From assembly GCA_041665625.1 (NCBI GenBank), contig JBAYIK010000002.1:33126-97125 (forward strand): 64,000 nt of DNA. Direction: 5' to 3'. The first letter of the stretch is position 1. Every line of letters begins with the position of its first letter. The translations under genes were made by a program, and so were the position numbers. The notes under the pieces were generated by a model that did no database searches, was not told the origin of the DNA, and saw nothing but the letters and a program-made list of their open reading frames with translations. This DNA comes from Minisyncoccota bacterium. Its GTDB lineage: Bacteria; Patescibacteriota; Minisyncoccia; Phycocordibacterales; XYD1-FULL-46-19. Shown piece by piece: positions 3,089-19,901 of this stretch.

Positions 3089-3532
3089 ATGGAAAAAGAG
3101 TATAAGGGTTATAACGGTTCTGTTATTTTAGGAGACAAGAGTCTTGCCATCAAACGAGGGCTCAGAGGAATTTTATTAGGAGGTGGTGCTATTAGGGGTG
3201 ATAAAACTATCCCTTATTCGAGCATTGTCGCTGTACAACTAAAGAAGGCTGGCTTTGTGGCTGGCTATATTCAGTTTACTCTCTCTGGTGGGTCAGAGGC
3301 TAAAGGTGGATTGTTTCAATCAGCTTACGATGAAAACTCAATCAACTTCCACCGCAAGGGCAATGATAAATTTGCGGAATTAAAAAAGTTAATTGAAGAA
3401 AGAATTGGTAGTGATTCAGTGAGTAGTCACAGCTCTCTGGACGAAATCGCTAAACTGGCAGAGCTAAGAGAAAAAGGGGTTATCACAGAGGAGGAATTTC
3501 AACAAAAGAAAAAACAATTATTAGCTTCTTAA
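3089..3532 (+). CDS. SHOCT-domain protein with a DUF4429-like N-terminal part
   Basis: The C-terminal stretch SSLDEIAKLAELREKGVITEEEFQQKKKQLL is a SHOCT motif. Confidence 0.65.
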   Translation: MEKEYKGYNGSVILGDKSLAIKRGLRGILLGGGAIRGDKTIPYSSIVAVQLKKAGFVAGYIQFTLSGGSEAKGGLFQSAYDENSINFHRKGNDKFAELKKLIEERIGSDSVSSHSSLDEIAKLAELREKGVITEEEFQQKKKQLLAS

Positions 3533-3547
3533 CCATAAAAAATAACT

Positions 3548-4015
3548 ATGGAAGAATTAAAAGGGTGGTTCAAGTTTGAGAATAACCTAAAGAGTATGCG
3601 ATGGTATCACTGGGTTTTACTAGTCGTCTTCTTGGCAGTTTTTGGAAACATAATGTCTGCTGTCTTAATTGATAGTCCAGCTCCAGCACAAAGCCCTAGC
3701 TCAAATCAGCCAAAAACGGAAGAAACGGCAAGCTCTGGCTCATCCATAAATTTTGATAAAGTCGAAAGTGCGGTCAACGCTCTTAAAATTACGGGTCTCG
3801 TTAAAAAAGTAGACTCTAGCTTAAATCAGGCCTACGTTGATGGTCTCAATTGGGGGACGCTTAATGTCGAGGAGAAAAAGACAACAGCACAGGCACTGGC
3901 TTACTACGTCGGCCACGAAGAAGGGACCAACCTCTACTGGGTGGATATCTATGACTGGCAATCTGGCAAAAAATTAGCTAAATTTAGTGATAGTTGGGGC
4001 TTCACGACCTACTAA
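3548..4015 (+). CDS. Hypothetical membrane-anchored extracytoplasmic protein
   Basis: N-terminal TM helix WYHWVLLVVFLAVFGNIMSAVLI, followed by a Ser/Pro-rich linker. Confidence 0.55.
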   Translation: MEELKGWFKFENNLKSMRWYHWVLLVVFLAVFGNIMSAVLIDSPAPAQSPSSNQPKTEETASSGSSINFDKVESAVNALKITGLVKKVDSSLNQAYVDGLNWGTLNVEEKKTTAQALAYYVGHEEGTNLYWVDIYDWQSGKKLAKFSDSWGFTTY

Positions 4016-4020
4016 CTAAA

Positions 4021-4572
4021 ATGTTGCCTAAAAATAAAAGATTCTTCTCCCTATTTTTGGCTTTTGGCCTGTTGTCTTGCGGACAGAGCGTTTTAGCTAT
4101 CCAGACCTCTATCATAGCCCCCGTAGAGGTCCATTTTGCCCCGTACGAGCTAATAACTCCTTTCATAGTCAAAGAGATTAAACAGGCCACTTCGACCATA
4201 CACGGCTCACTTTATGGCATTACAAACAAGGCCGTTGCAGACGCCCTAATTGAGCGAGACAGGTCAGGGGTTGAGGTCAAGATTGGCGAGGATAAACTCC
4301 AGTCGGCTGGCAAGTATGACCTACACAGATATTTATCAAGTAATGGAGTAGAAGTCGTTATCAAGAAGACCTCGGCACTGGAGCACAACAAATGGCTGAT
4401 TATCGACAATCAGGTGGTGCTTGAGGGTTCTTTCAATTACTCCAACAACGCTCAAAGTCAGGACAATAGCTTTATCATCTTTCGAAGTCCACAAATTGCC
4501 AGTCTGTTCGAGCAGAATTTTCTCAAAATTATGGCGAGAGATAAATATCCAGTAGACCCAACCATAAAATAA
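4021..4572 (+). CDS. Phospholipase D (HKD) superfamily endonuclease, Nuc-like, probably a secreted lipoprotein
   Basis: HKD motif HNKWLIIDNQVVLEGSFNYSNNAQ. The signal peptide with a lipobox-like LLSCGQ follows the ATG at 4021. The ORF track's alternative start is 3994. Confidence 0.7.
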   Translation: MLPKNKRFFSLFLAFGLLSCGQSVLAIQTSIIAPVEVHFAPYELITPFIVKEIKQATSTIHGSLYGITNKAVADALIERDRSGVEVKIGEDKLQSAGKYDLHRYLSSNGVEVVIKKTSALEHNKWLIIDNQVVLEGSFNYSNNAQSQDNSFIIFRSPQIASLFEQNFLKIMARDKYPVDPTIK

Positions 4573-4587
4573 AGCAACTAAGATAGG

Positions 4588-5145
4588 CTAAGTTTGGGAA
4601 TCATTGATAAATTGTCTAGCATTTTCGGAAACCCTTCCTGCGATAGAAGCTAAATTTGTTATTGCCGTTATAAAATTAAATTTATGAATAGGTTGAGCGA
4701 TATCTAGACAGCGAAGACTGCTTTTAAGATTCTCCCATTCGTGGAAATAATGTCCATAGAACCACCTATCAATTATTTTCTGAGTGGTCTCAACTTCGTC
4801 ATTAATCACGATTCTAATCATTGGATTGCACATCAGATTATTATAAGACTGCTTACACTTAATTATACTATTTCTCATCGCTGTGTTTTGGTTGCTATTT
4901 AACAACAAATCACAAATTTCTAGTATCGTAAGTCCCTCCTTTTTTAAGGTGATTTTTCTTAAATCAAGCAACATAGACCTTAGCTCATCTTCGTCGAATC
5001 CTGTAATGTCCTGGGATAGGGATTTATCAGTTTTATAATCCAACCTAAAAGCTATATTATCGACTCTCTTAAAAAACCGAGAAGACTGAACTCTCGTCAC
5101 GACATCTATATATGCTTCTATTTTTTCTCTATCTTGCTGGGTCAT
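4588..5145 (-). CDS. Hypothetical protein, 185 aa, translationally coupled to the upstream 821-aa gene
   Basis: The ORF overlaps the stop of 5129-7594 by 17 nt. No recognisable motif. Confidence 0.55.
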   Translation of the reverse strand: MTQQDREKIEAYIDVVTRVQSSRFFKRVDNIAFRLDYKTDKSLSQDITGFDEDELRSMLLDLRKITLKKEGLTILEICDLLLNSNQNTAMRNSIIKCKQSYNNLMCNPMIRIVINDEVETTQKIIDRWFYGHYFHEWENLKSSLRCLDIAQPIHKFNFITAITNLASIAGRVSENARQFINDSQT

Positions 5146-7594
5146 CTGGTGTTTCTTCTTCTGTCTCTTCTGACTTAGCCTTTTCCTGTAAACTTTTTAT
5201 GTCTTCCTCAATATCATCGTTTGCGGGACTATCTGCTGGCCACTTGCCCCATACCTTATAAGTGAACCAATCAATATCTGCTACATCTATCAAGGAGTAC
5301 ATCATAGACTGAGCATCATCCCTTATGCTCATATTACCGTTTAGTTTTTCGTAATCAAAGTTATATCTCCACTTACCCAACTCAACATAAAGTTGTTCTT
5401 TGTTCGGGCTAATCCTGTCTGGGTCAACACCAACAGGTAAATTGCTAAAGTATTTGTCATTATACTTTTTCTCAAAATCTAGAATCTTTAATTTTAATTC
5501 AGCATAGACATCCTCCCACTTATACTTAAGAGCTAAAATTCCTAAGTAGCAAGCCCTTTCAAAGATTCGAGGTTCATCATAACCGTAGCCTTCCGTTGTT
5601 TTATCTATCGCTTGGCCAGCCATAGAGGACAAAGAATTTATTGAATCGCTAGCGAGTTTTTTATTTTGAAGATTTGTCATTACTAGCAACCCCGTTTTTG
5701 CGACACTCTCAACTAAGGACCTAAAATTATTTGAACCGCCATCAAATTTTTCAGCGTGATGGGTAAACCAATAAGGAAGATGAAGATTCCAGCCAAGGTG
5801 TTTATATAGCTCCATTTTCTCGCCAGAGAACTCTGTGTTCTGAGCAATTTCTATAATCAAACTATTAACAGTAAAGAGTAGACGTCCAACGCTCTCTGCA
5901 AGATGGCTGTCGCAATTCTTAATCTTTTCTGATAGAGCCCTCAGACTTCCGTAGAGCTCCTCAAAAAATTCAACTATGTCGTTGCGGTAGCTGTCCTTTT
6001 CTCTTTTTTCTGTGAGAGCAAAATAATAATTTACTATTTGAGCAATCACAATGTAGAGCTGGTCATAGGCTTTTGTCATCGTGAGAGACGAGCTAATGTC
6101 ACTAGGTATATATCCGCTTTGTCTAGACACAAAGACATATTGGGCAATGGTCGCTATATGCTCCAGGGCGGGGTTAACCTGATATCTTGTAACCATTTTT
6201 TTGCTAAAAAACGAAGCCCCAATTATTTTAAGCAAATTGATATTACACTGGTCGATTATAATTAATTGTTTCTCCGCCAATCCATAAAAAGCAATCTCTT
6301 GTAGCTTATCCTGAATACCCCGAAGCATAGGGGTAAGTCCCTTATCTGAAGCGATTTCTCCAATGTTACCTAATTTATCGATACTCTGAAAAACGACCTC
6401 AAGATTTTTGCCCCTCTTCCCGATATCGATGAATTGAGAAAGGTTCCCTTCCAGACTCTCCAGTATTGGATTTTCGTTCGTCTGTCCTACATAAGTTATG
6501 TCCTTTGCTTTTAACGCTAAAAATTCATAAATACTGAGAAAAAGGGTTGCATTACCATCCTTTCCCTCCCTTATAAACTTTTCTCCAGCTTTATTTAAGC
6601 GTTCAAAATTGTTAAAGAGAAACCTCTGGCTATCGCTTTCAACGGCGAGAAAGGCAACAGCTGAAGGCATTGCAATAGAAGATGTCCTACGAACCTCAAG
6701 GAATCTCCCCAATATATTTCTTACAGCAATGAAACCCCTTTTTGTTGTTCCAACTTCCTGTTTGTCTGATAATTTTAAAGATATTTCGACGAGATTCTCA
6801 ATTTGTCTATCAAGATTATTAAAATAGGGCTGTAGAAAGGTATTGTAGGTTTTTGCGAGGGCTTCATTTTCTGACAATTTTTTATCTCTAGATACCATAA
6901 CCTTAGCAATTTTTCTTGCGTCGGATTCTACCAGGTTCAGAAACTGAATAGCTTGTTTTTCTAGAAAATAAATTGCGTTTGCGGGGTTTATCTTTTGTCG
7001 AACTGTTTTGTACTGCCAATCAATAAGGGCAAAGATAGCCCCTGCCAAAATAAGAGAAATTAGGGTTATGTACGAACTTACTGGTTCTAAAATTGTCTCA
7101 AGTCCTCCAACGTATAGACCTGCCCCAAAAAATAAGAGGGTTATAATAATAACAAGCAGGTAAACAATTTTTTCTTTCCAATCGTGTATGTACACGTCAA
7201 AATACTGAGAAGAGTACAGGTCAGAGGCACTTTGTATCATAAAAATAGAGATGGTAAACACTATTGCAATTGCACCCCCAGACATTGCCCCCACAGCGAT
7301 AAGATAATTGCTCAGGATATCTTGAGTTATCGAATGCCCTCCAAAACTAACTAAGAAAATGCCTATAATCAGACCAAGAAAGGCGAAACCAAACCTTAGG
7401 AGAACGTCGAATTTCCTTCCGAAGAAATTCTGTAATCTCCTCCACCTGTTCAGGTAAAGCCAGAAAGTAAGACTATAGCTGTACTGAAGGTAGGATAGCC
7501 AGCTTTGTTCCCAGCCACTCATTTCTTTTAGTAAATCTCTCACTTTTTCATTATTGACCAAAAGACTTGTTCTGTAAAGAATTGTCAAGTACAA
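5129..7594 (-). CDS. Hypothetical large membrane protein: N-terminal 4-TM block plus a roughly 600-aa cytoplasmic domain of unknown function
   Basis: 821-aa ORF. TM helices are FAFLGLIIGIFLVSFGG, LIAVGAMSGGAIAIVFTISIFMI, YLLVIIITLLFFGAGLYVGG and ITLISLILAGAIFALI. The true start may be downstream, for example at MSGWEQ. No catalytic motif recognised. Confidence 0.6.
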   Translation of the reverse strand: MYLTILYRTSLLVNNEKVRDLLKEMSGWEQSWLSYLQYSYSLTFWLYLNRWRRLQNFFGRKFDVLLRFGFAFLGLIIGIFLVSFGGHSITQDILSNYLIAVGAMSGGAIAIVFTISIFMIQSASDLYSSQYFDVYIHDWKEKIVYLLVIIITLLFFGAGLYVGGLETILEPVSSYITLISLILAGAIFALIDWQYKTVRQKINPANAIYFLEKQAIQFLNLVESDARKIAKVMVSRDKKLSENEALAKTYNTFLQPYFNNLDRQIENLVEISLKLSDKQEVGTTKRGFIAVRNILGRFLEVRRTSSIAMPSAVAFLAVESDSQRFLFNNFERLNKAGEKFIREGKDGNATLFLSIYEFLALKAKDITYVGQTNENPILESLEGNLSQFIDIGKRGKNLEVVFQSIDKLGNIGEIASDKGLTPMLRGIQDKLQEIAFYGLAEKQLIIIDQCNINLLKIIGASFFSKKMVTRYQVNPALEHIATIAQYVFVSRQSGYIPSDISSSLTMTKAYDQLYIVIAQIVNYYFALTEKREKDSYRNDIVEFFEELYGSLRALSEKIKNCDSHLAESVGRLLFTVNSLIIEIAQNTEFSGEKMELYKHLGWNLHLPYWFTHHAEKFDGGSNNFRSLVESVAKTGLLVMTNLQNKKLASDSINSLSSMAGQAIDKTTEGYGYDEPRIFERACYLGILALKYKWEDVYAELKLKILDFEKKYNDKYFSNLPVGVDPDRISPNKEQLYVELGKWRYNFDYEKLNGNMSIRDDAQSMMYSLIDVADIDWFTYKVWGKWPADSPANDDIEEDIKSLQEKAKSEETEEETPDDPAR

Positions 7595-8191: not shown

Positions 8192-8437
8192 ATGGAAAAT
8201 GAAAATAAAAAATTCCTGACCAGGGACTTCTACATAACCGCCTTCTTAATAGCGAAGGGGTATAAAGTCTCAGATGTTGATATGACAATCCCAGACAAAA
8301 TGTTCTTCTCCTTTGAGGACTTCAAAGGTAGGGAGCGTTTGGTTAGGGATTTTTTATGTGGGCAAGCTTCAGTTGAGCCCCAGAAATTTATTTCAGGGAT
8401 AAAAATACTGAAGTCTTTGATACACGCAAGAGATTAA
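8192..8437 (+). CDS. Hypothetical small protein, 81 aa
   Basis: ORF. It might be a directionality or regulatory factor because it sits next to the recombinase, but this is speculative. Confidence 0.4.
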   Translation: MENENKKFLTRDFYITAFLIAKGYKVSDVDMTIPDKMFFSFEDFKGRERLVRDFLCGQASVEPQKFISGIKILKSLIHARD

Positions 8438-8973: not shown

Positions 8974-10560
8974 ATGAAAGATAATAATATGGAAAAAATT
9001 ACAAAAATGGTTAAGGCAGTAATCTTCCCCAGAGTCTCTTCGAAGGAACAGGAGGAAACAGGTTACTCCCTAGACGCTCAGCAGGAGCTGTTGAAGAATT
9101 ATAGTGACAAGCACTCGTTTGAAGTGGCCAAGGCCTTTAGAGTTTCGGAATCGGCTAGTGGTAAAAAACAAAGGTCGACCTTCAACGAAATGATGGCCTA
9201 TATGGATAAGAACAAAATAAACATACTCGTCTGCGAAAAGGTCGACAGATTAACTCGTAATTTTAAGGACGCAATTTTTATTGATGAATGGCTTGATAAA
9301 AACGAAAATCGACAGATTCATTTAGTCAAAGACGGTATAGTCTTGCACAAGTATTCTAAATCACAAGAAAAGCTTAATTGGGGAATCAGGATACTGTTCG
9401 CCAAAAATTATACTGATAATCTTTCGGAGGAAGTTAAAAAAGGCCAAAAACAGAAGTCAAAGGAAGGGTGGCTACCAACAAAGCCACCGCTGGGTTATAG
9501 AACGATAGGAGAGAAGGGCCACAAGGTGCACGTTGTTGATGAGAAGGTTGCTCCTTATATCAAAAAAATGTTTGACCTTTATGCCACAGGCAACTACTCA
9601 ACAGACTCTTTGGGGGACAAAATGTATAAGCTTGGGCTAAGAAGCCGTGGTGGTTTTCGAGTAGTTAAAAGCAAGATTCACAAACTTCTCTCTGACCCCT
9701 TCTACTATGGAATGTTTGTCTGGAAAGGTGAGGTCTATCAAGGGAAGCACGAACCGTTAATTGATAAAGACCTCTTTGGCCAAGTCAGGGAAAAAATGAC
9801 CAGGGGTAGTGCTCCCTACCACAACAAACATTTTAAGGAATTAAGAGGTAAGATATTTTGTGGAAATTGTGGCAAGACTGTAACCTGGGAAAAACAGAAA
9901 GGCTCTTGGTATGGGGCTTGCAAACAGTGCAAAGCTCAACTAGCCGACAAGAGGCAATATATTAAACAAGAAAATGTTGAGAACTACTTGCTGGACCTTA
10001 TAATCGCTACAGCACCCAAAAACGAAAGGATTCTTGCTGTTCTTAACAAGGCCCTCAAAGAGAGTCATAGCGAAGAAATTATATATCACGAAACACAGGT
10101 CCAGAGTATAAACAATAGCCTTACTCGTATCCAACAGAGGAAAAAGGTTCTCTATGATGACCGCCTAGATGGTAGAATTTCTCCCTCTGAATATGACCAA
10201 AAAATTGAGGAGTTTAGGCAAGAAGAAACTGACTTAATAAATTCGCTAAGCAAATTGAAGTCTGACAACACAGAATACTATAGAGTTGGTATCGCCCTTC
10301 ACGAGCTCGCTCTACGAGCAAGAGAAATATATTTAAGCAAAAAGGCTACAGTGGAAGAGCGTCGCTTGCTCTTGTCTTACTCTTTCTCGAACGTCTCGGT
10401 TCTACGGGGAGATATAAGGGCAGAGTACACAAAAGCGTTCCAGTTTTTGATTGATTGGATGCCGAAGGTAAATGAAACTCTCGAACTCACAAAAGACGTT
10501 GAGAATAAACAACAAAAGAGCACTTTCGTGCCCTCTTGTCCTATCCTGCTCCGCGGGTAG
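8974..10560 (+). CDS. Large serine recombinase (integrase / resolvase family)
   Basis: The N-terminal catalytic domain VIFPRVSSKEQEE...ILVCEKVDRLTRN carries the catalytic Ser. A recombinase domain follows, then the zinc ribbon CGNCGK...CKQCK and a coiled-coil C-terminus. The stop codon 10558-10560 overlaps the 3' end of tRNA exon 2. Confidence 0.85.
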   Translation: MKDNNMEKITKMVKAVIFPRVSSKEQEETGYSLDAQQELLKNYSDKHSFEVAKAFRVSESASGKKQRSTFNEMMAYMDKNKINILVCEKVDRLTRNFKDAIFIDEWLDKNENRQIHLVKDGIVLHKYSKSQEKLNWGIRILFAKNYTDNLSEEVKKGQKQKSKEGWLPTKPPLGYRTIGEKGHKVHVVDEKVAPYIKKMFDLYATGNYSTDSLGDKMYKLGLRSRGGFRVVKSKIHKLLSDPFYYGMFVWKGEVYQGKHEPLIDKDLFGQVREKMTRGSAPYHNKHFKELRGKIFCGNCGKTVTWEKQKGSWYGACKQCKAQLADKRQYIKQENVENYLLDLIIATAPKNERILAVLNKALKESHSEEIIYHETQVQSINNSLTRIQQRKKVLYDDRLDGRISPSEYDQKIEEFRQEETDLINSLSKLKSDNTEYYRVGIALHELALRAREIYLSKKATVEERRLLLSYSFSNVSVLRGDIRAEYTKAFQFLIDWMPKVNETLELTKDVENKQQKSTFVPSCPILLRG

Positions 10561-10586: not shown

Positions 10587-11133
10587 CACTAATCCTGATG
10601 TTTCCAAAAGGCGTGGACTATATCATCACCCGGTCTGGGTGCAAGGCGCTTCCCCCGTACTTACGGAGTACTCTCTTTCGAGATAGTCTCTGAACCTTCC
10701 CTCTGATTTCTCTCGGGGCTTGGCTGCTGATTACCCTCGTCTTGACGTTAGGGCTTCCAGCAATTCACCTTGTTATTCATTCCTAAATTCCTTTAGGAAG
10801 CTGCGTAATACCTTCGTGTACTTCCATGTGACAATTAGCGCAAAGCAAAACGCATTTAGCAATCTCCTTCTCTATCTTCTCCCAAGATCTAGTTAATCCT
10901 CTTACAGATAAACCGAAATCTTTTTTCTTAGGATCAATATGATGAAAACTGAGAGCGCTCTGACTCTTAGAATAACCACATATCGCACACTTGCTACCTT
11001 TTGACGCACGAGCCATTTCTCTTAATTTTTTACGACGAAGAGATACAGCTTGGCGCAAATAGACAGCACGGTCTTTATAAGTTCTTTTGTCTGGCATACT
11101 CATACAAGTATACCATATTTGAACTCATGTGAC
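10587..11133 (-). other. Group I intron in the tRNA anticodon loop, carrying an HNH endonuclease ORF
   Basis: Reading the minus strand after the ORF: P-like gaattgctggaag, Q-like aatcagcagcc, R element GTTCAGAGACTAT (forward 10683-10696) and S element GATATAGTCCACGC (forward 10611-10624). P7 pairs GACTA with TAGTC. The 5' splice follows a U and the 3' splice follows a G. Confidence 0.7.
10783..11103 (-). CDS. HNH homing endonuclease encoded inside the group I intron
   Basis: 106-aa ORF with CAICGYS...HHIDPKK...CANCHMEVH, which is an HNH motif with a zinc-finger-like Cys/His arrangement. It lies between the intron 5' end and the P3-P9 core. Confidence 0.75.
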   Translation of the reverse strand: MSMPDKRTYKDRAVYLRQAVSLRRKKLREMARASKGSKCAICGYSKSQSALSFHHIDPKKKDFGLSVRGLTRSWEKIEKEIAKCVLLCANCHMEVHEGITQLPKGI

Positions 11134-11262: not shown

Positions 11263-13026
11263 TTGGCCCATATGAAATGGAACCTAAAACCCTTATTTAA
11301 GAGCGATACTGACCCCAATATCGCCAAGAAGCAGGCCGAGTCAGTGAAAGCTAGTTATGTCTTTATTAACAAATGGCGAATTCGTAAAGATTATTTGAGT
11401 GACCCTAAAGTGCTCGCGGTCGCCCTCAAGGAGTTCGAAGCCTGGGACGCGCAATCTGGCACCAACGACCAAGTCTGCTATTACTTCTCTCTCCGTGGTG
11501 AATTAGAGAAGGGCAACGCCAAGATCAAGGCCAGTTTCAATCAGGCTAAAGATGTCGCGGTTAAGATTGATAATGATATTCAGTTTTTTACTCTTAACTT
11601 AAGTAAAATTGGAGTAACAACTCAAAAAAAATTCCTCAAGGCGCCAGAGCTTACCCCCTATCACCAATTACTTAAAAAACTTTTTGAGACCGGGCGCTAT
11701 ACCAAGTCTGACGCCGAAGAAAAAATTATTAATCAACTCTCTGACACTAGTTACCACCGCTGGGTTGAACTTATCGAATCACTCCTCGCCGAAGAAGAAC
11801 GTGGGGGCAAAAACTTTCCCACCCTTCTCTCCGAATGTGCTAACCAGGATAAAAAGAAGCGAGATCAAGCCAGCCAAGCAGCCAATGAGATCCTCGCCAC
11901 TTGGGCCCCCGTCGCCGAACAAGAATTAAACGCTGTTCTCGAACACAAAAAGACCATGGATCAAATCCGTGGCGCCGAAGAGCCCGAAACACTTCGTCTC
12001 TTAGGTGACGATATTGATAAAAAGACAGTTGAGGCCATGCTTGAAGCGGTTGAGGATAATTTCAAGCTAGCCAAACGTTACCACCAGCTCAAAGCTAAAT
12101 TACTTAAGCAAAAGAAAATTAGCTATTTCGAGCGTGGAGTACCAGTGGGGAAAATTAACAAAAAGTGGGCCTTCCTTGACGCCCAAAATTTAGTTCAAAA
12201 TCAATTAGCAAAGCTTGATCCCGAACTCGGCCAAATTTTTACTAGCTTTATTAAAAACGGCCAGATCGACGTCTTGCCTAAAAAGGGCAAAAGAGGAGGA
12301 GCCTTCTGTATTAGTCATTCTCCCACTCTCCCAACCTATATTCTTCTTAATTACACTGGAGAATGGCGCGACGTTAAAACTCTCGCTCACGAAGTGGGAC
12401 ATGGTATTAACAATGAGCTCATTCGCAAAAACAGCCGCCCCATTTATTTTGGCACTCCCATCTCCACGGCTGAAGTGGCGAGCACCTTCTTCGAAGACAT
12501 TGTGTTAGAATCTTCAAGAGAAAATGTGTCTGAACAAGAAAAATTAACCTTAATGATGGCCAAGCTTGATGACGAGATTGGTACCATCTTCCGCCAAGTG
12601 GCGGCTTACCGCTTCGAACAAACTCTACACAAGACTTATCGTGAACAAGGCTATCTGTCTAAAGAAGTTATCGGCAAAATGTGGCTGGCCGAGATGAAAA
12701 AATATTTAGGCGAAGCCGTGACTTATCCCAAAGGTAGCGAGAATTGGTGGGTACACTGGAGCCACTTCCGCAACTTCTTCTACGTCTATTCTTATGCCTC
12801 GGGCCTCCTGATCGCCAAAGCCCTGCAAGCTAAAGTAAGAGAAAATCCGAAATTTATAAAAGAAGTAAAAATCTTTCTCAGCACCGGCACCGCCAAGAGC
12901 CCCAAAGATATTTTTTCTGAGCTTGGCCTTAACATCGAAGATCCTAAATTCTGGCAAGCCGGCCTTAATCAATTTGCCAAGCTTCTGAGTGAAGCTGAGA
13001 AATTAGCTAAGAAAATCAAACTCTAA
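11263..13026 (+). CDS. pepF: Oligoendopeptidase F (M3B family)
   Basis: 587 aa with the HExxH zinc motif TLAHEVGHGINNE and typical M3 architecture. Confidence 0.8.
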   Translation: MAHMKWNLKPLFKSDTDPNIAKKQAESVKASYVFINKWRIRKDYLSDPKVLAVALKEFEAWDAQSGTNDQVCYYFSLRGELEKGNAKIKASFNQAKDVAVKIDNDIQFFTLNLSKIGVTTQKKFLKAPELTPYHQLLKKLFETGRYTKSDAEEKIINQLSDTSYHRWVELIESLLAEEERGGKNFPTLLSECANQDKKKRDQASQAANEILATWAPVAEQELNAVLEHKKTMDQIRGAEEPETLRLLGDDIDKKTVEAMLEAVEDNFKLAKRYHQLKAKLLKQKKISYFERGVPVGKINKKWAFLDAQNLVQNQLAKLDPELGQIFTSFIKNGQIDVLPKKGKRGGAFCISHSPTLPTYILLNYTGEWRDVKTLAHEVGHGINNELIRKNSRPIYFGTPISTAEVASTFFEDIVLESSRENVSEQEKLTLMMAKLDDEIGTIFRQVAAYRFEQTLHKTYREQGYLSKEVIGKMWLAEMKKYLGEAVTYPKGSENWWVHWSHFRNFFYVYSYASGLLIAKALQAKVRENPKFIKEVKIFLSTGTAKSPKDIFSELGLNIEDPKFWQAGLNQFAKLLSEAEKLAKKIKL

Positions 13027-13554: not shown

Positions 13555-13625
13555 GGGCCTATAGTCTAGTGGTACGACGCTACATTCGCATTGTAGAGGC
13601 GCGAGTCCGATTCTCGCTAGGTCCA
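13555..13625 (+). tRNA. tRNA-Ala(CGC)
   Basis: Acceptor GGGCCTA pairs with TAGGTCC through a G3-U70 wobble, which is the alanine identity element. Anticodon loop TTCGCAT, T-arm GCGAG-TCCGATT-CTCGC, discriminator A. Confidence 0.75.
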
Positions 13626-13664
13626 CAAAAATAAGGAGCAAGGCGACGCCACTCCCTTATTTTT

Positions 13665-13738
13665 GCACCTTTAGCTCAGTTGGTTAGAGCGTACGATTCA
13701 CATTCGTAAGGTCGCAGGTTCGAACCCTGCAAGGTGCA
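13665..13738 (+). tRNA. tRNA-Val(CAC)
   Basis: GCACCTTTAGCTCAGTTGGTTAGAGC... with anticodon loop TTCACAT, T-arm GGTTCGAACCC, acceptor AAGGTGC and discriminator A. Confidence 0.8.
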
Positions 13739-13743
13739 CCCGA

Positions 13744-14172
13744 TTAAACGTCCCTTTCCATTCTTATCTCATCTGGTTGGAGCAGGCCTTTAGCACGTAG
13801 ATCTTGAAGCTTTTCCTCGGGCAACATTTTAAAACCAATTTTATCGTGAGCTCTGACAGAAGCGGAATTACTCTTCTCGATTGTGGCATAAAGGGTCTTC
13901 AAACTGTGGAGCTCAATCATTCGATCATAAATTTTACCAATCAAACCCTTACCCCGGAAAGCGGGGGCTAAAAGAATCTGAACAAAACCCGTATCGGACA
14001 TATTCTCCGCTGGGATAAAGCCAACTATCCCCGCCTGATCGCCATCAACAAAAACGGTGTGGTAAAATTTCTCAGTCTTCATTGTCGGAGCCTCGATCCG
14101 ACGGTTATCAGGCAAGGACTCAAAAAACTCTTGATTAAAATCTCCCAAACTTATCTCAAAATAATCACTAAA
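13744..14172 (-). CDS. GNAT family N-acetyltransferase
   Basis: Acetyl-CoA binding motif region VQILLAPAFRGKGLIGKIY. The start is taken at the internal Met of MFSDYFE. The ORF track extends to 14244. Confidence 0.65.
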   Translation of the reverse strand, partial: FSDYFEISLGDFNQEFFESLPDNRRIEAPTMKTEKFYHTVFVDGDQAGIVGFIPAENMSDTGFVQILLAPAFRGKGLIGKIYDRMIELHSLKTLYATIEKSNSASVRAHDKIGFKMLPEEKLQDLRAKGLLQPDEIRMERDV

Positions 14173-14217
14173 CATAAAGTCTTTTGTTAAGTTATAAACT
14201 GTGCTAATTTTAACATA

Positions 14218-14754
14218 ATGAAAAACGAAAAAGAAATAGCCCATATTCTTAAAACCGGCGGGGTGGGAGTCATCCCGACTGATACCCTATACGGTCTGGT
14301 AGCCCAAGCCCTCGACAAAAAAGCTGTCACTAGGGTGAGAAGGCTTAAGAGCCGGGGGCCAAGTAAACCCTTTATTATTCTTATTTCTTCAATCCGAGAT
14401 TTAGAAAAATTCAAAATAAAACTAGATCCTGAGAGTAAGAAGATTTTAACCAAAATTTGGCCCGGGCCAGTCAGTGTCGCTTTTAACAAAAAGCTTTCCT
14501 TCCGCCTTCCAAAGAATAAATTCCTAAATGAGTTAATTAAAAAGACGGGACCACTCATTGCCCCCTCAGCTAACCCCGAGGGATCCCCACCGGCTTCGAC
14601 AATCTCTGACGCCAGAAATTATTTCGGCACTAAAATAGATTTTTATTTATCAAATGGCAAAAAATTAGCCGGACAACCCTCGACATTAATTAGTTTAAAA
14701 AAAGGTCAAATAGAAATATTAAGATATGGAAAATATAAATTACGAGGAATTTAG
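14218..14754 (+). CDS. tsaC: L-threonylcarbamoyladenylate synthase (YrdC/Sua5 family)
   Basis: IPTDTLYGL motif and YrdC-like length. Confidence 0.8.
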   Translation: MKNEKEIAHILKTGGVGVIPTDTLYGLVAQALDKKAVTRVRRLKSRGPSKPFIILISSIRDLEKFKIKLDPESKKILTKIWPGPVSVAFNKKLSFRLPKNKFLNELIKKTGPLIAPSANPEGSPPASTISDARNYFGTKIDFYLSNGKKLAGQPSTLISLKKGQIEILRYGKYKLRGI

Positions 14755-15055
14755 TAAAGTAAAATTAAGAATTGTGGAGATCGTCTCAGCCGAGAGGGTT
14801 GAGGGCTCAGACAAACTACTGAAGCTCGAGGTAAATATGGGAGACGAAAAACGACAAATTATTGCGGGCATTGGCAAAGCCTACGAACCAGAAAAATTAG
14901 TTGGAAAAAAGATCGTCATCGTCGCAAATTTAGAACCGAGGAAATTAATGGGGCTAGAAAGTCAGGGCATGCTCTTGGCGGCCTCAACCGAAAATGAGGG
15001 GCCAGTTCTCCTTATCCCAGACGCCGATATCACCTCGGGAGCCGAAATTCGCTAG
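14726..15055 (+). CDS. tRNA-binding domain protein (CsaA / Trbp111-like)
   Basis: 109 aa with an EMAP/MetRS C-terminal-like OB fold: KVKLRIVEIVSAERVEGSDKLLKLEV. Confidence 0.65.
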   Translation: MENINYEEFSKVKLRIVEIVSAERVEGSDKLLKLEVNMGDEKRQIIAGIGKAYEPEKLVGKKIVIVANLEPRKLMGLESQGMLLAASTENEGPVLLIPDADITSGAEIR

Positions 15056-15137
15056 ATATGGCCTCATTTGGAGAGATTTTGACTTAGCTAATCTTTCCTT
15101 TATAATGGGGTAAATTATAAGGTTAATCAAAATTATT

Positions 15138-15989
15138 ATGGAAGAAAGCAAAAGTTCCTGGTTAGTGCCCGTTGCAATTATTGTCTGCATCCTGCTTATC
15201 GGCGGTGCTGTTTATTTTAAAGATAAATCTGGGACCACCAGTGGGAATAACGCCAGTTCAACTGGAGCGGCCAGCCAAGCCTTAGATAAAATTCTTACCT
15301 TAGACGATGGTCGCGGTGGAATCTTCGACGTTAATCAATTCGACTTAAGCAAATTACGACCTGTCGATAATACAGATCATATCTTGGGTAATGCCAACGC
15401 TCCGGTTAAAATTATTGCCTACACCGATCTAGAGTGCCCAGCCTGTAAGTATTATCACACCCAACTCAAAGGTCTTGAGGCCAAATATGTCGCTACTGGC
15501 AAATTGGCTATTGTCTACCGTCCTTTCCCGCTTGATCAAATTCACTCCAAAGTTCGCGCTGAATTCTTAGCCGCCGAATGTGTGAATGAACTTGGTGGCA
15601 ATGACAAGTACTGGCAATTCGTAGATAAAATTTTTGAAATTACCCCATCCAATAATGGACTCGATCCAGTCAAACTCGGCGAGACCGCCAAGGCACTAGG
15701 TATCAACATGAAGAGCTTCGACGCCTGCGTTGCCGCCAACAAATACGCTGACAAGATCCAGAAGGGTGAGGACGAGGCCATGGCCCTCCGTGCCCCTGGT
15801 ACCCCAACCACCTTCATCATTGATCCTCAAGGCGGTATCTCCCCCCGTGGTTTTGCTTACCAAAGCGAGGCCCTTTCTGCCGCTGTTGACCTCCTCTTAA
15901 CCCTCCCTGCCACAACCGCTCCCGCCGCTGTTGCTCCTGTTGCCACCACCACTGGTGCTGTCGCCGGGACAAGTACGGCGACCCAGTAA
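15138..15989 (+). CDS. DsbA-like thiol:disulfide oxidoreductase, membrane-anchored
   Basis: N-terminal TM helix, the thioredoxin active site CPACKYYH, and a Thr/Ala/Pro-rich C-terminal tail. Confidence 0.7.
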   Translation: MEESKSSWLVPVAIIVCILLIGGAVYFKDKSGTTSGNNASSTGAASQALDKILTLDDGRGGIFDVNQFDLSKLRPVDNTDHILGNANAPVKIIAYTDLECPACKYYHTQLKGLEAKYVATGKLAIVYRPFPLDQIHSKVRAEFLAAECVNELGGNDKYWQFVDKIFEITPSNNGLDPVKLGETAKALGINMKSFDACVAANKYADKIQKGEDEAMALRAPGTPTTFIIDPQGGISPRGFAYQSEALSAAVDLLLTLPATTAPAAVAPVATTTGAVAGTSTATQ

Positions 15990-16867: not shown

Positions 16868-18187
16868 CTAATAACCTTGAAGTTTCTTCGCCTTCTCATG
16901 CTGTCTTATCTTCTCATGAGCCTTAGCCTCAATCTGACGAATGCGTTCACGAGTGACACCAAACTCTTTACCCACTTCTTCGAGGGTGCGCATTACCCCA
17001 TCTTTGAGACCATGACGCATCTCCAAAATTCGTTGTTCTTTCATCGTGAGGTCGCTCATGATCTCATCAATCTGATCACGAAGGATACGACGGGAGGTGT
17101 CTTGGTCGGGGGAAGCAATCTTGTCGTCGGCGATGAATTCGCCCAAGGTGCTCTTATCATCATCGTCGTCGGTTGGCTTATCTAAACTTGCAGTGCTCTG
17201 ATCAATCTTCTCAATGGTGTGGATTTTCTCAACCTCAACACCCATCTCGGTAGCAATTTCTTGTGGCAACGGGTCACGACCCAAGTCTTGAGCTAAGCGA
17301 CGATAAACCTGTTTATACTTAGCGATAGTCTCCACCATGTGCACCGGAATACGGATAGTACGTGACTGGTCAGCCAAAGCACGAGTGACAGCCTGACGAA
17401 TCCACCAGGTGGCGTAGGTTGAGAACTTATAACCCTTGCGCCAGTCAAATTTTTCTACGGCCTTGAAGAGGCCGATATTCCCCTCCTGAATTAGATCGAG
17501 TAAGGTTAAGTCTTGACTACGGCCAATATATTTCTTGGCAATCGAGACAACAAGACGAAGGTTGGCATTGGCCAGATCTTTCTTGGCATCATCATCCCCA
17601 GCCAAAATTCTTTTAGCTAAATCCTTTTCTTCATTACCGTTAAGGAGTTTGTGACGGCCAATCTCACGCAAGTACATTTGGACAGAGTCAAGAGAGACAT
17701 CACCTCGTTCATGTTTGATCTTCTCATCCACTTTCATATCTGAATCAAGCAAAGATCCTTCTTCAAGAATATCAATCCCCGACTCTTCAAACTTGGTATA
17801 GAGTTCGTCTAAGAAGATAATATCATTCTCAATATTAGGAAATTCTTTTAGAATCTCTGAGTAAGTTACAAAGTGGCGTTGTTTGCCCTTGCCGATCAAG
17901 TTGTCCATCTTCTGCTTCAGCTTAGACTCCATGGTCTGACCCTCTTTCTTCATGGCGACTACTTCTTTTTTATGGATGACAAAACCCTTACCCGCAGGTT
18001 TCTTGGCTGACTTTTTAGCAACAACTTTCTTCTTTACCACCTTAGCCTTCTTAATAACCTTTTTCACAGCCTTGGCTTTCTTGGTCACCTTTTTCTTGGC
18101 GACCTTCGCCTTCTTAACAACTTTTTTCACAACCTTGGCTTTCTTGACGGCTTTTTTCTTCGCAACGACTTTAGTTTTTTTCTTCAT
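16868..18187 (-). CDS. rpoD: RNA polymerase sigma-70 factor RpoD with an N-terminal lysine/alanine-repeat (histone-H1-like) extension
   Basis: Regions 2-4 are conserved: [33 protein letters not shown] and [14 protein letters not shown]. The N-terminal roughly 60 aa is [10 protein letters not shown]-type repeats. Confidence 0.9.
18001..18187 (-). repeat. Tandem roughly 30-bp coding repeats (K/A/V-rich) at the rpoD 5' end
   Basis: Repeated aagaaagccaaggttgtgaaaaaagttgtt-type units encode [10 protein letters not shown]. Confidence 0.55.
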
Positions 18188-18191
18188 ATAT

Positions 18192-19901
18192 TTAAGACTT
18201 TTTAAAATTATTAATGGCTAAAGTTAAATTTTGACATTTTTGTAAATTACTAGCGAGAGCTTCTCGGTCTCCTTTCTTCTCGGCTACTTGAACCGCCTTT
18301 AAGGCTTCACGGAGCTCTTCTTTTAGACCTTCTTCCTGCCAGGCCTGGGCGAGACTCGCTATCTCTTTTATCAAATCACTAGCAGGATCATACACCAATT
18401 CGGCGGCCAAGGCGAGCCGATCATGGCTCCCCGCATATTCCTCTTTTTTCTTTATAAAATTATCATTTTTGAGTAATTCTGCCAACTTAAGGGCAAGTTT
18501 TTCTTCTTCTCCTCTAGCTATTAACAAGAAATAAAGTCCAAAAAGTCTTTCTTCTATTAATCTAGACCGAGTCATTAAGGGGACGGTCCCGTCCTCAGAA
18601 GAACTAGGCTTTTGAGCCTCGTCAGTATTTACCAAAATCTTTTGTAAATCACCCCAAATAGCTTCTTCCCCGATAGACAAAAGGTTAGCCAACTTAACGA
18701 CAAAGTGGGCTTGCTCCATCTTTTTCTCTAGCGCTTTGATATAAGGAAGGACATGGGTATTGATCGCCAAGTTTAATTCTAAACCTTTTTTCCCTTCTTC
18801 TTGCAAGGCGTCAATCATGAAATCGATATAATGTTTTGCTCCTTCTATCGCCTTTAGCCATTCAGCCGGATCAGCCTTAATTACTTCAGCCGGATCTTGG
18901 CCCGAAGGAAGTTTAGCAATTTTTACATCTAACCCTTCGCTTCTCAAGAGGTCAATCGCCCGACGTGAAGCCGAGAGACCAGCCAAATCATAGTCGTAAG
19001 CCAAGACAACATTATCAGTTAGCCTCTTAATAAGTTGAACATGCTCAGAGGTCATCGCCGTGCCAGAAACCGCTACCGTGTTAGTCATCCCGGCTTGATG
19101 CGACATGATTACATCAAATTGCCCTTCAACAAAAACACAAAAATCTTTTTGCCTCATCGCCTGCTTCGCGCGATCATAGCCATAAAGAAGGCGTGACTTG
19201 TCATAAAGTTCGGTCTGAGGACTATTAATATATTTAGCGGTATCTTCCTGATTAGGCCCAAAGATACGCCCAGAGTAACCGACAACCTTCCCCGTTGGAT
19301 TAAATAACGGGAACATAATACGGGAACGGAAACGGTCATAAACTCGGCCCTGACCAGCATGGGCCGTCTGAGCAACAGCCACCCCAGTCTTAATCATCTC
19401 ATCTTCACGGTATCCGCGACCAAGTAAATATTCACTTAAACTTCGCCAACCTTCGGGCGCGAAACCTAAACGCCAAGTTTTAATTGTCTCTTTGGTTAGG
19501 CCTCTCTCGTAGAGATAATTTAGGGCTTCGGGCTTCCCCACAAGTTGCTTGAAATAAAAATTGGTCGCTTCATCAAGTAGAGTAAACAAACGATTATCCG
19601 TCTTGGGAGCCTGAGCGAGGGTCTCAAGTTCCACCCCCGCTCGTTCGGCCAAGGTCTTAAGAGCTTCGAGAAAATCTACGCCCTCAATCTCCTGAACAAA
19701 GCTGATGATATCCCCACCCCGATTACAGCCAAAACAGTGGTAAGAACCACGGGCGGGAGAGATGAAGAAAGACGGGGTTTTCTCATTATGGAAGGGGCAA
19801 CAGCCCCGATAATTAATACCCGCCTTCTCCAACTTCATATAGGAGCTAACGACGTCAACAATCCCGAGCTTCGATTTAATTTGTTCAACCGAAGATGCCA
19901 T
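18192..19901 (-). CDS. dnaG: DNA primase
   Basis: Zinc-binding [12 protein letters not shown]...CFGC and a TOPRIM region EGQFDVI. It sits in the dnaG-rpoD operon. Confidence 0.9.

Follow-up and report, generated by a model that had tools for sequence, protein, structure and literature searches.

A 64,000-nucleotide (nt) stretch of DNA from a Minisyncoccota bacterium (GenBank assembly GCA_041665625.1, contig JBAYIK010000002.1, positions 33,126 to 97,125; here called the window) carries on its minus strand two overlapping genes, one for a large membrane protein and one for a small cytoplasmic protein, which a first-pass annotation had put forward as a coupled two-gene module and possible new defense system. 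The large open reading frame (ORF) spans 5129..7594 (−) and encodes 821 amino acids (aa) from a TTG codon, and the small gene lies at 4588..5145 (−) and encodes 185 aa from an ATG. Both ORFs were reproduced exactly, including the 17 nt that they have in common (5129..5145, −), where the stop of the large gene overlaps the start of the small gene; this arrangement is consistent with translational coupling. The large gene most likely starts at GTG 7543 rather than at TTG 7594, giving a probable gene at 5129..7543 (−) and a protein of 804 aa, because the NCBI model of an identical protein (P0001; 804 aa, annotated "hypothetical protein" WCV68_01795) starts there and the N termini of homologs align there. 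Judged by their homologs, both ORFs are real genes rather than chance ORFs, as clusters were recovered for the large protein (116 full-length clusters and 535 representatives) as well as for the small one (22 clusters).

Seventy-one loci were gathered (given below by L numbers), the large-gene loci were cut to 41 nonredundant ones, and a hidden Markov model of the small family was used to look directly 3' of the large gene in each of these. The small gene followed the large gene in 3 of the 41 loci: the window, L066 (overlap of 4 nt), and L025 (overlap of 26 nt). The search from the small-gene side gave one more pair, L071 (overlap of 8 nt), which stands outside this count. The closest relatives of the window's large protein do without the small gene, L001 (65% identical) among them. 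Twelve of the 41 loci have a same-strand gene no more than 20 nt downstream of the large gene, and no fewer than six unrelated families are represented there: one of four-transmembrane (TM) proteins of 165 to 182 aa (L009, L033, and L037), three-TM proteins (L017 and L028), short soluble proteins at some loci, a protein with a weak HEPN_Cthe2314 match that fell below the cutoff (L039, 6887-7651; E = 8.7e-5), and a protein with an RNNILIH motif seen by eye only (L027, 10422-10988). A DUF2726 gene lies about 180 nt downstream in L024 and L052, and at the remaining loci the large gene is followed by a convergent gene or by none. RNxxxH-type motifs (RNNILIH and RNILLH) occur in the downstream partners of L027 and L039 and in that of L016 (12766-13494); such partners may be HEPN RNases joined to the membrane protein as cassettes.

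In four of the nine contexts found for the small gene, more than for any other partner, the large gene lies upstream (the window, L025, L066, and L071). The small gene otherwise follows a DUF4238 gene in L067 (E = 1.3e-30; 4-nt overlap), a DUF2779 gene in L069 (E = 7.2e-38; 3-nt gap), and an unknown 316-aa gene in L004; it occurs with a NucS_C-like protein and a weak TnsA-like pair in L070 and is solitary beside a serine recombinase in L068. It is tightly appended to the upstream gene in seven of the nine contexts and is always downstream of its partner. Both genes are modular, and their pairing, though genuine and repeated, is optional rather than a fixed two-gene system. The first-pass annotation is thus supported in part. 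It had named a lack of conservation of the two genes as neighbors among the grounds for refuting the module, and on this point it is largely not borne out: the pair is found at 3 of 41 large-gene loci (L071 not counted), and the small gene has the large one beside it in four of nine contexts.

The genomic company of the large gene is dominated by recombinases and restriction-modification (RM) genes. A convergent tyrosine integrase of about 300 aa lies just downstream in 8 of the 41 loci, with a DUF488 gene next in 6, and a serine recombinase of about 520 to 550 aa occurs within five genes in 7, the window included. Type I RM genes were found in five loci, type III Mod/Res in one, a PLD-SNF2 helicase together with an MmeI-like methyltransferase in three, SNase in three, and an SMC_N/AAA_23 protein in one. 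Among the 147 neighbors within three genes, the most frequent Pfam families were ResIII and Phage_integrase (seven each), N6_Mtase and Eco57I (five each), and SWI2_SNF2, Methylase_S, HSDR_N, and Resolvase (four each). Some of these genes are physically tied to the large gene, which starts 2 nt past hsdR in L028 and overlaps hsdR by 4 nt in L033; in L032 the start of the large gene is overlapped by a Vsr gene (4 nt). The large-small pair of L071 borders directly on a divergent HTH_17-hsdM-hsdS-hsdR operon. Coupling to RM genes concerns the smaller share of the loci (about 10 of the 41), and the copy in the window has no RM system beside it. Small HTH_17 genes (excisionase/MerR-like) repeatedly lie immediately upstream of the large gene or divergent from it, in L001 (5760-5939), L066 (5331-5516), L071 (5353-5529), and L063 (2521-2700), and could encode either a regulator of the large gene or the excisionase of the element. 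In L065, a radical-SAM/HxsD (His-Xaa-Ser) cluster (3350-7526) stands immediately upstream of the large-family gene, and a TrwB/type IV secretion system coupling protein downstream (17149-18508) suggests a conjugative element.

The integrases connect the large gene with a known defense gene. The integrase beside the DUF4238-small pair of L067 is 80% identical to that of L001, which carries the large gene alone, and 75% identical to that of L025, which carries the large and the small gene, and a DUF488 gene adjoins the integrase in all three. One integrative-element family thus carries, in the same cargo slot, DUF4238 with the small gene, the large gene with the small gene, or the large gene alone. 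The backbone of this family behaves like a defense hotspot of CPR (Candidate Phyla Radiation) integrative elements. The combination of a tyrosine integrase of about 300 aa with DUF488, at 50 to 80% identity, was also seen more widely (L001, L016, L024, L025, L030, L032, and L067).

The architecture assigned to the large protein by the first-pass annotation, four N-terminal TM helices and a cytoplasmic domain of about 600 aa, was supported by both hydropathy, with four hydrophobic segments within the first 195 residues, and an AlphaFold2 model (pLDDT 84; pTM 0.74), which places the helices at residues 45-67, 74-109, 122-146, and 153-185. The four-TM module accordingly occupies 6989..7411 (−; aa 45-185 of the 804-aa protein). 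Basic residues precede TM1 and follow TM4, so that the positive-inside rule gives an N-in/C-in topology with the large domain in the cytoplasm. This domain (5234..6985, −; about aa 187-770) is predicted from the model to be a HEAT/ARM-like alpha-solenoid without an enzyme fold. The TM module is the best-conserved part of the family, with the motifs GAMxGGxIAIVFTISIF, DLYSSQY, and LIDWQYKxVRxKxNP, which argues for a function beyond simple anchoring; ESDSQ, ENPI, GYDEPR, and DIDxF are conserved in the cytoplasmic loops.

The TM module is remotely related to that of DUF2254 (PF10011), a relation that is transitive and runs through family members that pass the profile cutoff. Of 37 distant members, all full-length matches of the large-family profile, 9 match DUF2254 (best E = 8.5e-13), their first 190 or so residues aligning with profile positions 6 to 168 of 368; P0220 scores 29.8 bits over positions 9 to 167, above the gathering cutoff of 28.8. 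P0078, 48% identical to the window protein, falls short of that cutoff (15.7 bits; E = 0.0067), and the window protein itself has no match to DUF2254 at E ≤ 0.1. The kinship is confined to the N-terminal four-TM module: the matches end at about position 168, the C-terminal half of the profile (about 170 to 368) is not present, and the cytoplasmic part of the large protein is instead the 600-aa alpha-solenoid. The DUF2254 literature that we searched describes a knot topology only and no function.

Members of the large family have a uniform length of about 770 to 850 aa. They form 116 full-length clusters at 40 to 65% identity in a collection clustered at 90%, and a profile search of 1.84 billion 50%-cluster representatives retrieved 535 members, 364 of them at E ≤ 1e-10, every member found bearing a "hypothetical" name. 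The description of both proteins as uncharacterized holds: direct searches of Pfam, NCBIfam, PADLOC, and PHROGs gave no usable match for either, sequence profiles of the PDB returned only designed repeat proteins for the large family (at E ≥ 0.1) and nothing for the small family, and no earlier description of either family was found in the literature and libraries searched. The roughly 535 clusters (at 50% identity) are scattered over CPR, DPANN, and a few other lineages, and the one-genome-per-species GTDB set (185,579 species) yielded no more than 18 loci. These belong to several CPR classes, to Atribacterota and Elusimicrobiota, and to a metagenome-assembled genome (MAG) of the Burkholderiaceae, and MAGs of Nanoarchaeota and Marinimicrobia contain distant members. 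We call this patchy distribution horizontal-transfer-like. Truncated or split large-family ORFs of 162 to 621 aa were also seen (L019, L020, L021, L057, and L058), with tblastn matches covering most of the large protein in some of these loci; such copies, one of them in the complete Elusimicrobiota chromosome CP096137.1, may be pseudogenes or frameshifts.

The small family was reached in two steps, a single-sequence search giving 3 relatives and the profile built from these giving 22 clusters of 179 to 187 aa. Its motifs are GFDEEDLRSMLLDLRK, KW(L/F)YGxYFHE, and HKxNF, of which GFDE..RS.L.DLRK, W.YG.Y.HE, and H...F are invariant in the 22-cluster alignment. Hydropathy gives no TM segment, and the protein is predicted to be cytoplasmic; its fold had no match among viral structures (BFVD) at E ≤ 0.001. 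An identity as a HEPN protein was considered and rejected, since the window protein has RWFYGH but its R and H are not conserved, so that a conserved Rx4-6H motif at the start of the last core helix is lacking. The large proteins of L071 and L025 are 89% identical, against 57.5% for their small partners, which indicates that the small protein evolves faster than its partner; the difference could reflect diversifying selection. About 5 kb from the solitary small gene of L068 lies a diversity-generating retroelement (13657-15304; RVT_1 reverse transcriptase and bAvd), with a serine recombinase and a gene for a TrwB-like coupling protein beside it.

Our favored reading, to which we give a probability of about 50%, is that the large gene is stand-alone, horizontally mobile conflict cargo, most likely directed against phages or other mobile genetic elements, with the small protein as an optional accessory. 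A defense role is plausible because of the recombinase and RM neighborhood, the coupling of the small family to DUF4238, and the cargo slot held in common with DUF4238. The earlier suggestion of an antiphage function gains from this company and from the DUF4238 link, but no known system model matches. DUF4238 is a validated single-gene antiphage system that alone protects Escherichia coli from T7 (Rousset et al. 2022, PMC9122126). It occupies the same slot as judged by integrases that are 75 to 80% identical, and a small-family member follows it with a 4-nt overlap; it is, however, a soluble protein of about 300 to 360 aa with no sequence kinship to the large protein, so that the link is positional and runs through the common partner only.

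We infer a division of the large protein into sensor and effector and a role for the small protein, and hold these mechanistic details, like every step that follows, with much less confidence than the statement that the gene is defense cargo. The solenoid might offer a binding or sensing surface for a component of a phage or other foreign element, or for a partner protein. Its engagement could then switch the membrane module, for example, by oligomerization or pore opening, and the switched four-helix module would permeabilize the membrane or arrest the infected cell. The small protein is in this reading no obligate subunit but an optional, fast-evolving accessory cassette. It might act as adaptor, regulator, or neutralizer, and its translation would be coupled to that of the effector-type gene before it, which may encode the membrane protein, a NucS-like nuclease, DUF4238, or DUF2779. 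The scheme is modeled on the domain layout of the large protein and on the precedent of other membrane-effector defenses.

Membrane-effector defenses combine a small multi-TM module with a cytoplasmic sensing or partner component and are encoded in defense islands, as in Kiwa (KwaA/KwaB), RexAB, and the TM effectors of CBASS, Pycsar, and retrons, and the large protein has this general architecture in common with them. It differs from them in showing no homology by PADLOC models, in having the sensor and the membrane module fused in one 800-aa protein, and in lacking a nucleotide-signaling or DUF4868-type partner. A second likeness is to RM-embedded genes such as PrrC of the EcoprrI type I RM locus and other "restriction-linked ORFs," since in some loci the large gene is likewise coupled to hsdR or directly follows type I, type III, or MmeI-like RM genes; the large protein, however, has no anticodon-nuclease or ATPase domain. 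The small family resembles the hyperpromiscuous antitoxin domain Panacea (DUF4065) in that a small protein stands beside many unrelated partners, but no sequence or fold similarity was detected, the small gene is always downstream of its partner, and a neutralizing activity would be putative. The general kind of system, a membrane protein of defense islands with an accessory partner, is already familiar.

A bolder and more tentative proposal, which we regard as unlikely, is that the large protein, a HEAT solenoid anchored in the membrane, serves as a "hub" and represents a new modular immune class in CPR and DPANN, with a conserved chassis, swappable downstream cassettes, and wiring to RM systems in some genomes, and that the 185-aa protein is a hyperpromiscuous adaptor common to the hub, DUF4238, and nuclease-type genes. 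The cassettes would be the 185-aa family, the HEPN-like proteins, and the small TM proteins; a DUF2726 gene takes the corresponding place, though about 180 nt away from the large gene. If this were true, the RM wiring might possibly guard RM operons against phage antirestriction.

Several points weigh against a defense role. The neighbor counts are raw and have no matched background from the same genomes, and some loci look chromosomal and nondefensive, L002/L017 having a peptidase and a CCA-adding enzyme along with pilin-like genes. The large protein showed no recognizable catalytic or pore-forming signature, and the alpha-solenoid is also compatible with scaffolding or regulatory roles outside defense. 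The family is absent from sequenced plasmids and phages and nearly absent from IMG/VR, and is thus without a cultivated-host context: tblastn found no match in PLSDB for P0001 or the distant member P0220 and none in INPHARED for P0001, and IMG/VR yielded one large-family locus and no small-family locus. The role given to the small protein is a guess, as no fold could be assigned to it. The PADLOC search that the first-pass annotation had suggested matched no system component with either protein, and with PADLOC-DB v2.0.0 the small protein, the large homolog of L066, and the small homolog of L067 all had no match; an MTase_II match of the window's large protein (E = 0.0018; 15.5 bits) was judged spurious.

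An alternative is that the large protein is nondefensive membrane cargo, serving the element in entry exclusion or surface exclusion, or else envelope signaling, the regulation of transport, or the scaffolding of DNA uptake in nucleic-acid scavengers. DUF2254, to which the TM module is homologous, is widespread and unlinked to defense, solenoids are generic scaffolds, secreted-type nucleases (SNase and PLD) recur nearby, one locus adjoins pilin-like genes, and some loci have TrwB-like coupling proteins. Such a role is nevertheless unlikely in our estimate, given the very patchy distribution of the family, the dominance of RM genes and recombinases among its neighbors, its operon coupling to hsdR, and the cargo slot that it has in common with DUF4238.

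That the two genes form a toxin-antitoxin or addiction module stabilizing the island, with an upstream membrane-damaging toxin and a small, promiscuous, Panacea-like neutralizer, would agree with the tight placement of the small family behind potentially toxic genes (the nuclease-like DUF2779 and NucS_C, DUF4238, and the membrane protein), with its fast evolution, and with the presence of recombinases near most of its loci. We consider this improbable: in most cases a large-family gene is not followed by a cognate gene, which is hard to square with an unneutralized toxin, neither protein has a recognizable DNA-binding domain of the antitoxin type, and DUF4238 works as a single gene (PMC9122126).

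An obligate two-gene defense system, in which a membrane effector or sensor and a dedicated 185-aa partner are both required, is a shade more improbable still. The overlap of 17 nt in the window and its counterparts in L025, L066, and L071, which recur across 48 to 60% divergence of the large protein, would fit such a system, as would the rank of the large gene as commonest upstream partner of the small family (four of nine contexts); they are set against the presence of the small gene in just 3 of 41 large-gene loci obtained without bias toward it, its absence from closest relatives such as L001 at 65% identity, and its occurrence elsewhere alone or coupled to unrelated genes. That the two are independent cargo genes, overlapping through gene-dense packing and with no functional link, is highly improbable: each gene is far commoner without the other, and short gene overlaps are common in compact CPR genomes, but four independent pairs keep a constant order and overlaps of 4 to 26 nt despite 48 to 60% divergence, and the small gene is tightly appended in seven of nine contexts.

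CPR and DPANN rarely carry CRISPR, and their resistance to phages is poorly understood. A membrane family of about 535 clusters that travels with RM genes and integrases, and that has a slot and a partner in common with a validated defense gene, provides a specific candidate, open to experiment, for a further part of their immunity. The small family is useful as a marker, since it is appended to several unrelated effector-type genes and tracing it could reveal further defense genes. Even if the conjecture of defense is wrong, a sizeable orphan family has been assigned a structure class, that of a DUF2254-like four-TM module joined to a HEAT solenoid.

Around the module in the window, a putative promoter-like site (7550..7578, −; TTTACA-17-AATAAT, 10 of 12 consensus matches) lies just 5' of GTG 7543; it is a weak candidate, coming from a consensus scan only in which the number of sites was not above the shuffled expectation. 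No operator-like inverted repeats or terminators were found around the module above chance. A DUF5659 gene (8192-8437, +; library match) is followed by a large serine recombinase (8974-10560, +; Resolvase, E = 4.7e-21; Recombinase, E = 4.9e-14; Zn_ribbon_recom), which is island context and lies outside the operon. Next come a small HNH endonuclease (10783-11103, −; E = 5e-6), situated between the recombinase and an M3 oligopeptidase (11263-13026, +), and, beyond the latter, tRNA-Ala(CGC) and tRNA-Val(CAC) (13555-13741, +). The GC content is 0.35 to 0.43 across 1 to 10.2 kb of the window and 0.44 to 0.49 further on; the right edge of the low-GC island is probably at about 10.6 to 11.2 kb, and the left edge may lie beyond the window start. 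The earlier description of the island as recombinase bounded is not borne out by the window, in which a single recombinase is visible and no att-like direct repeats above chance surround the module.

On the other side of the module are a DUF4429-SHOCT gene (3089-3532, +; library match) and a PLDc_2/NucT-like gene (3994-4572, +; 192 aa), which is convergent with the module. The presence of a PLD-family nuclease and a SHOCT protein beside the pair, as first annotated, is therefore confirmed, but neither is conserved beside the large gene: the neighbor clusters of the 41 loci contain no homolog of the window's PLD, SHOCT, or 155-aa genes. Both were rejected as members of the module for this reason, the PLD gene being, in addition, convergent and of secreted type. 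PLDc_2 occurs in 3 of the 147 neighbors, and PLD-SNF2 helicase fusions are found in L001 and L052 and a double-PLD protein in L063. In the window's PLDc_2/NucT-like protein, a lipobox-like "LLSC" motif comes after a hydrophobic N-terminal stretch (aa 17-36); with this signal-peptide-like N terminus, typical of secreted NucT-type nucleases, the protein looks like a secreted or lipoprotein nuclease, and it perhaps serves nucleic-acid scavenging in a CPR organism rather than intracellular defense.

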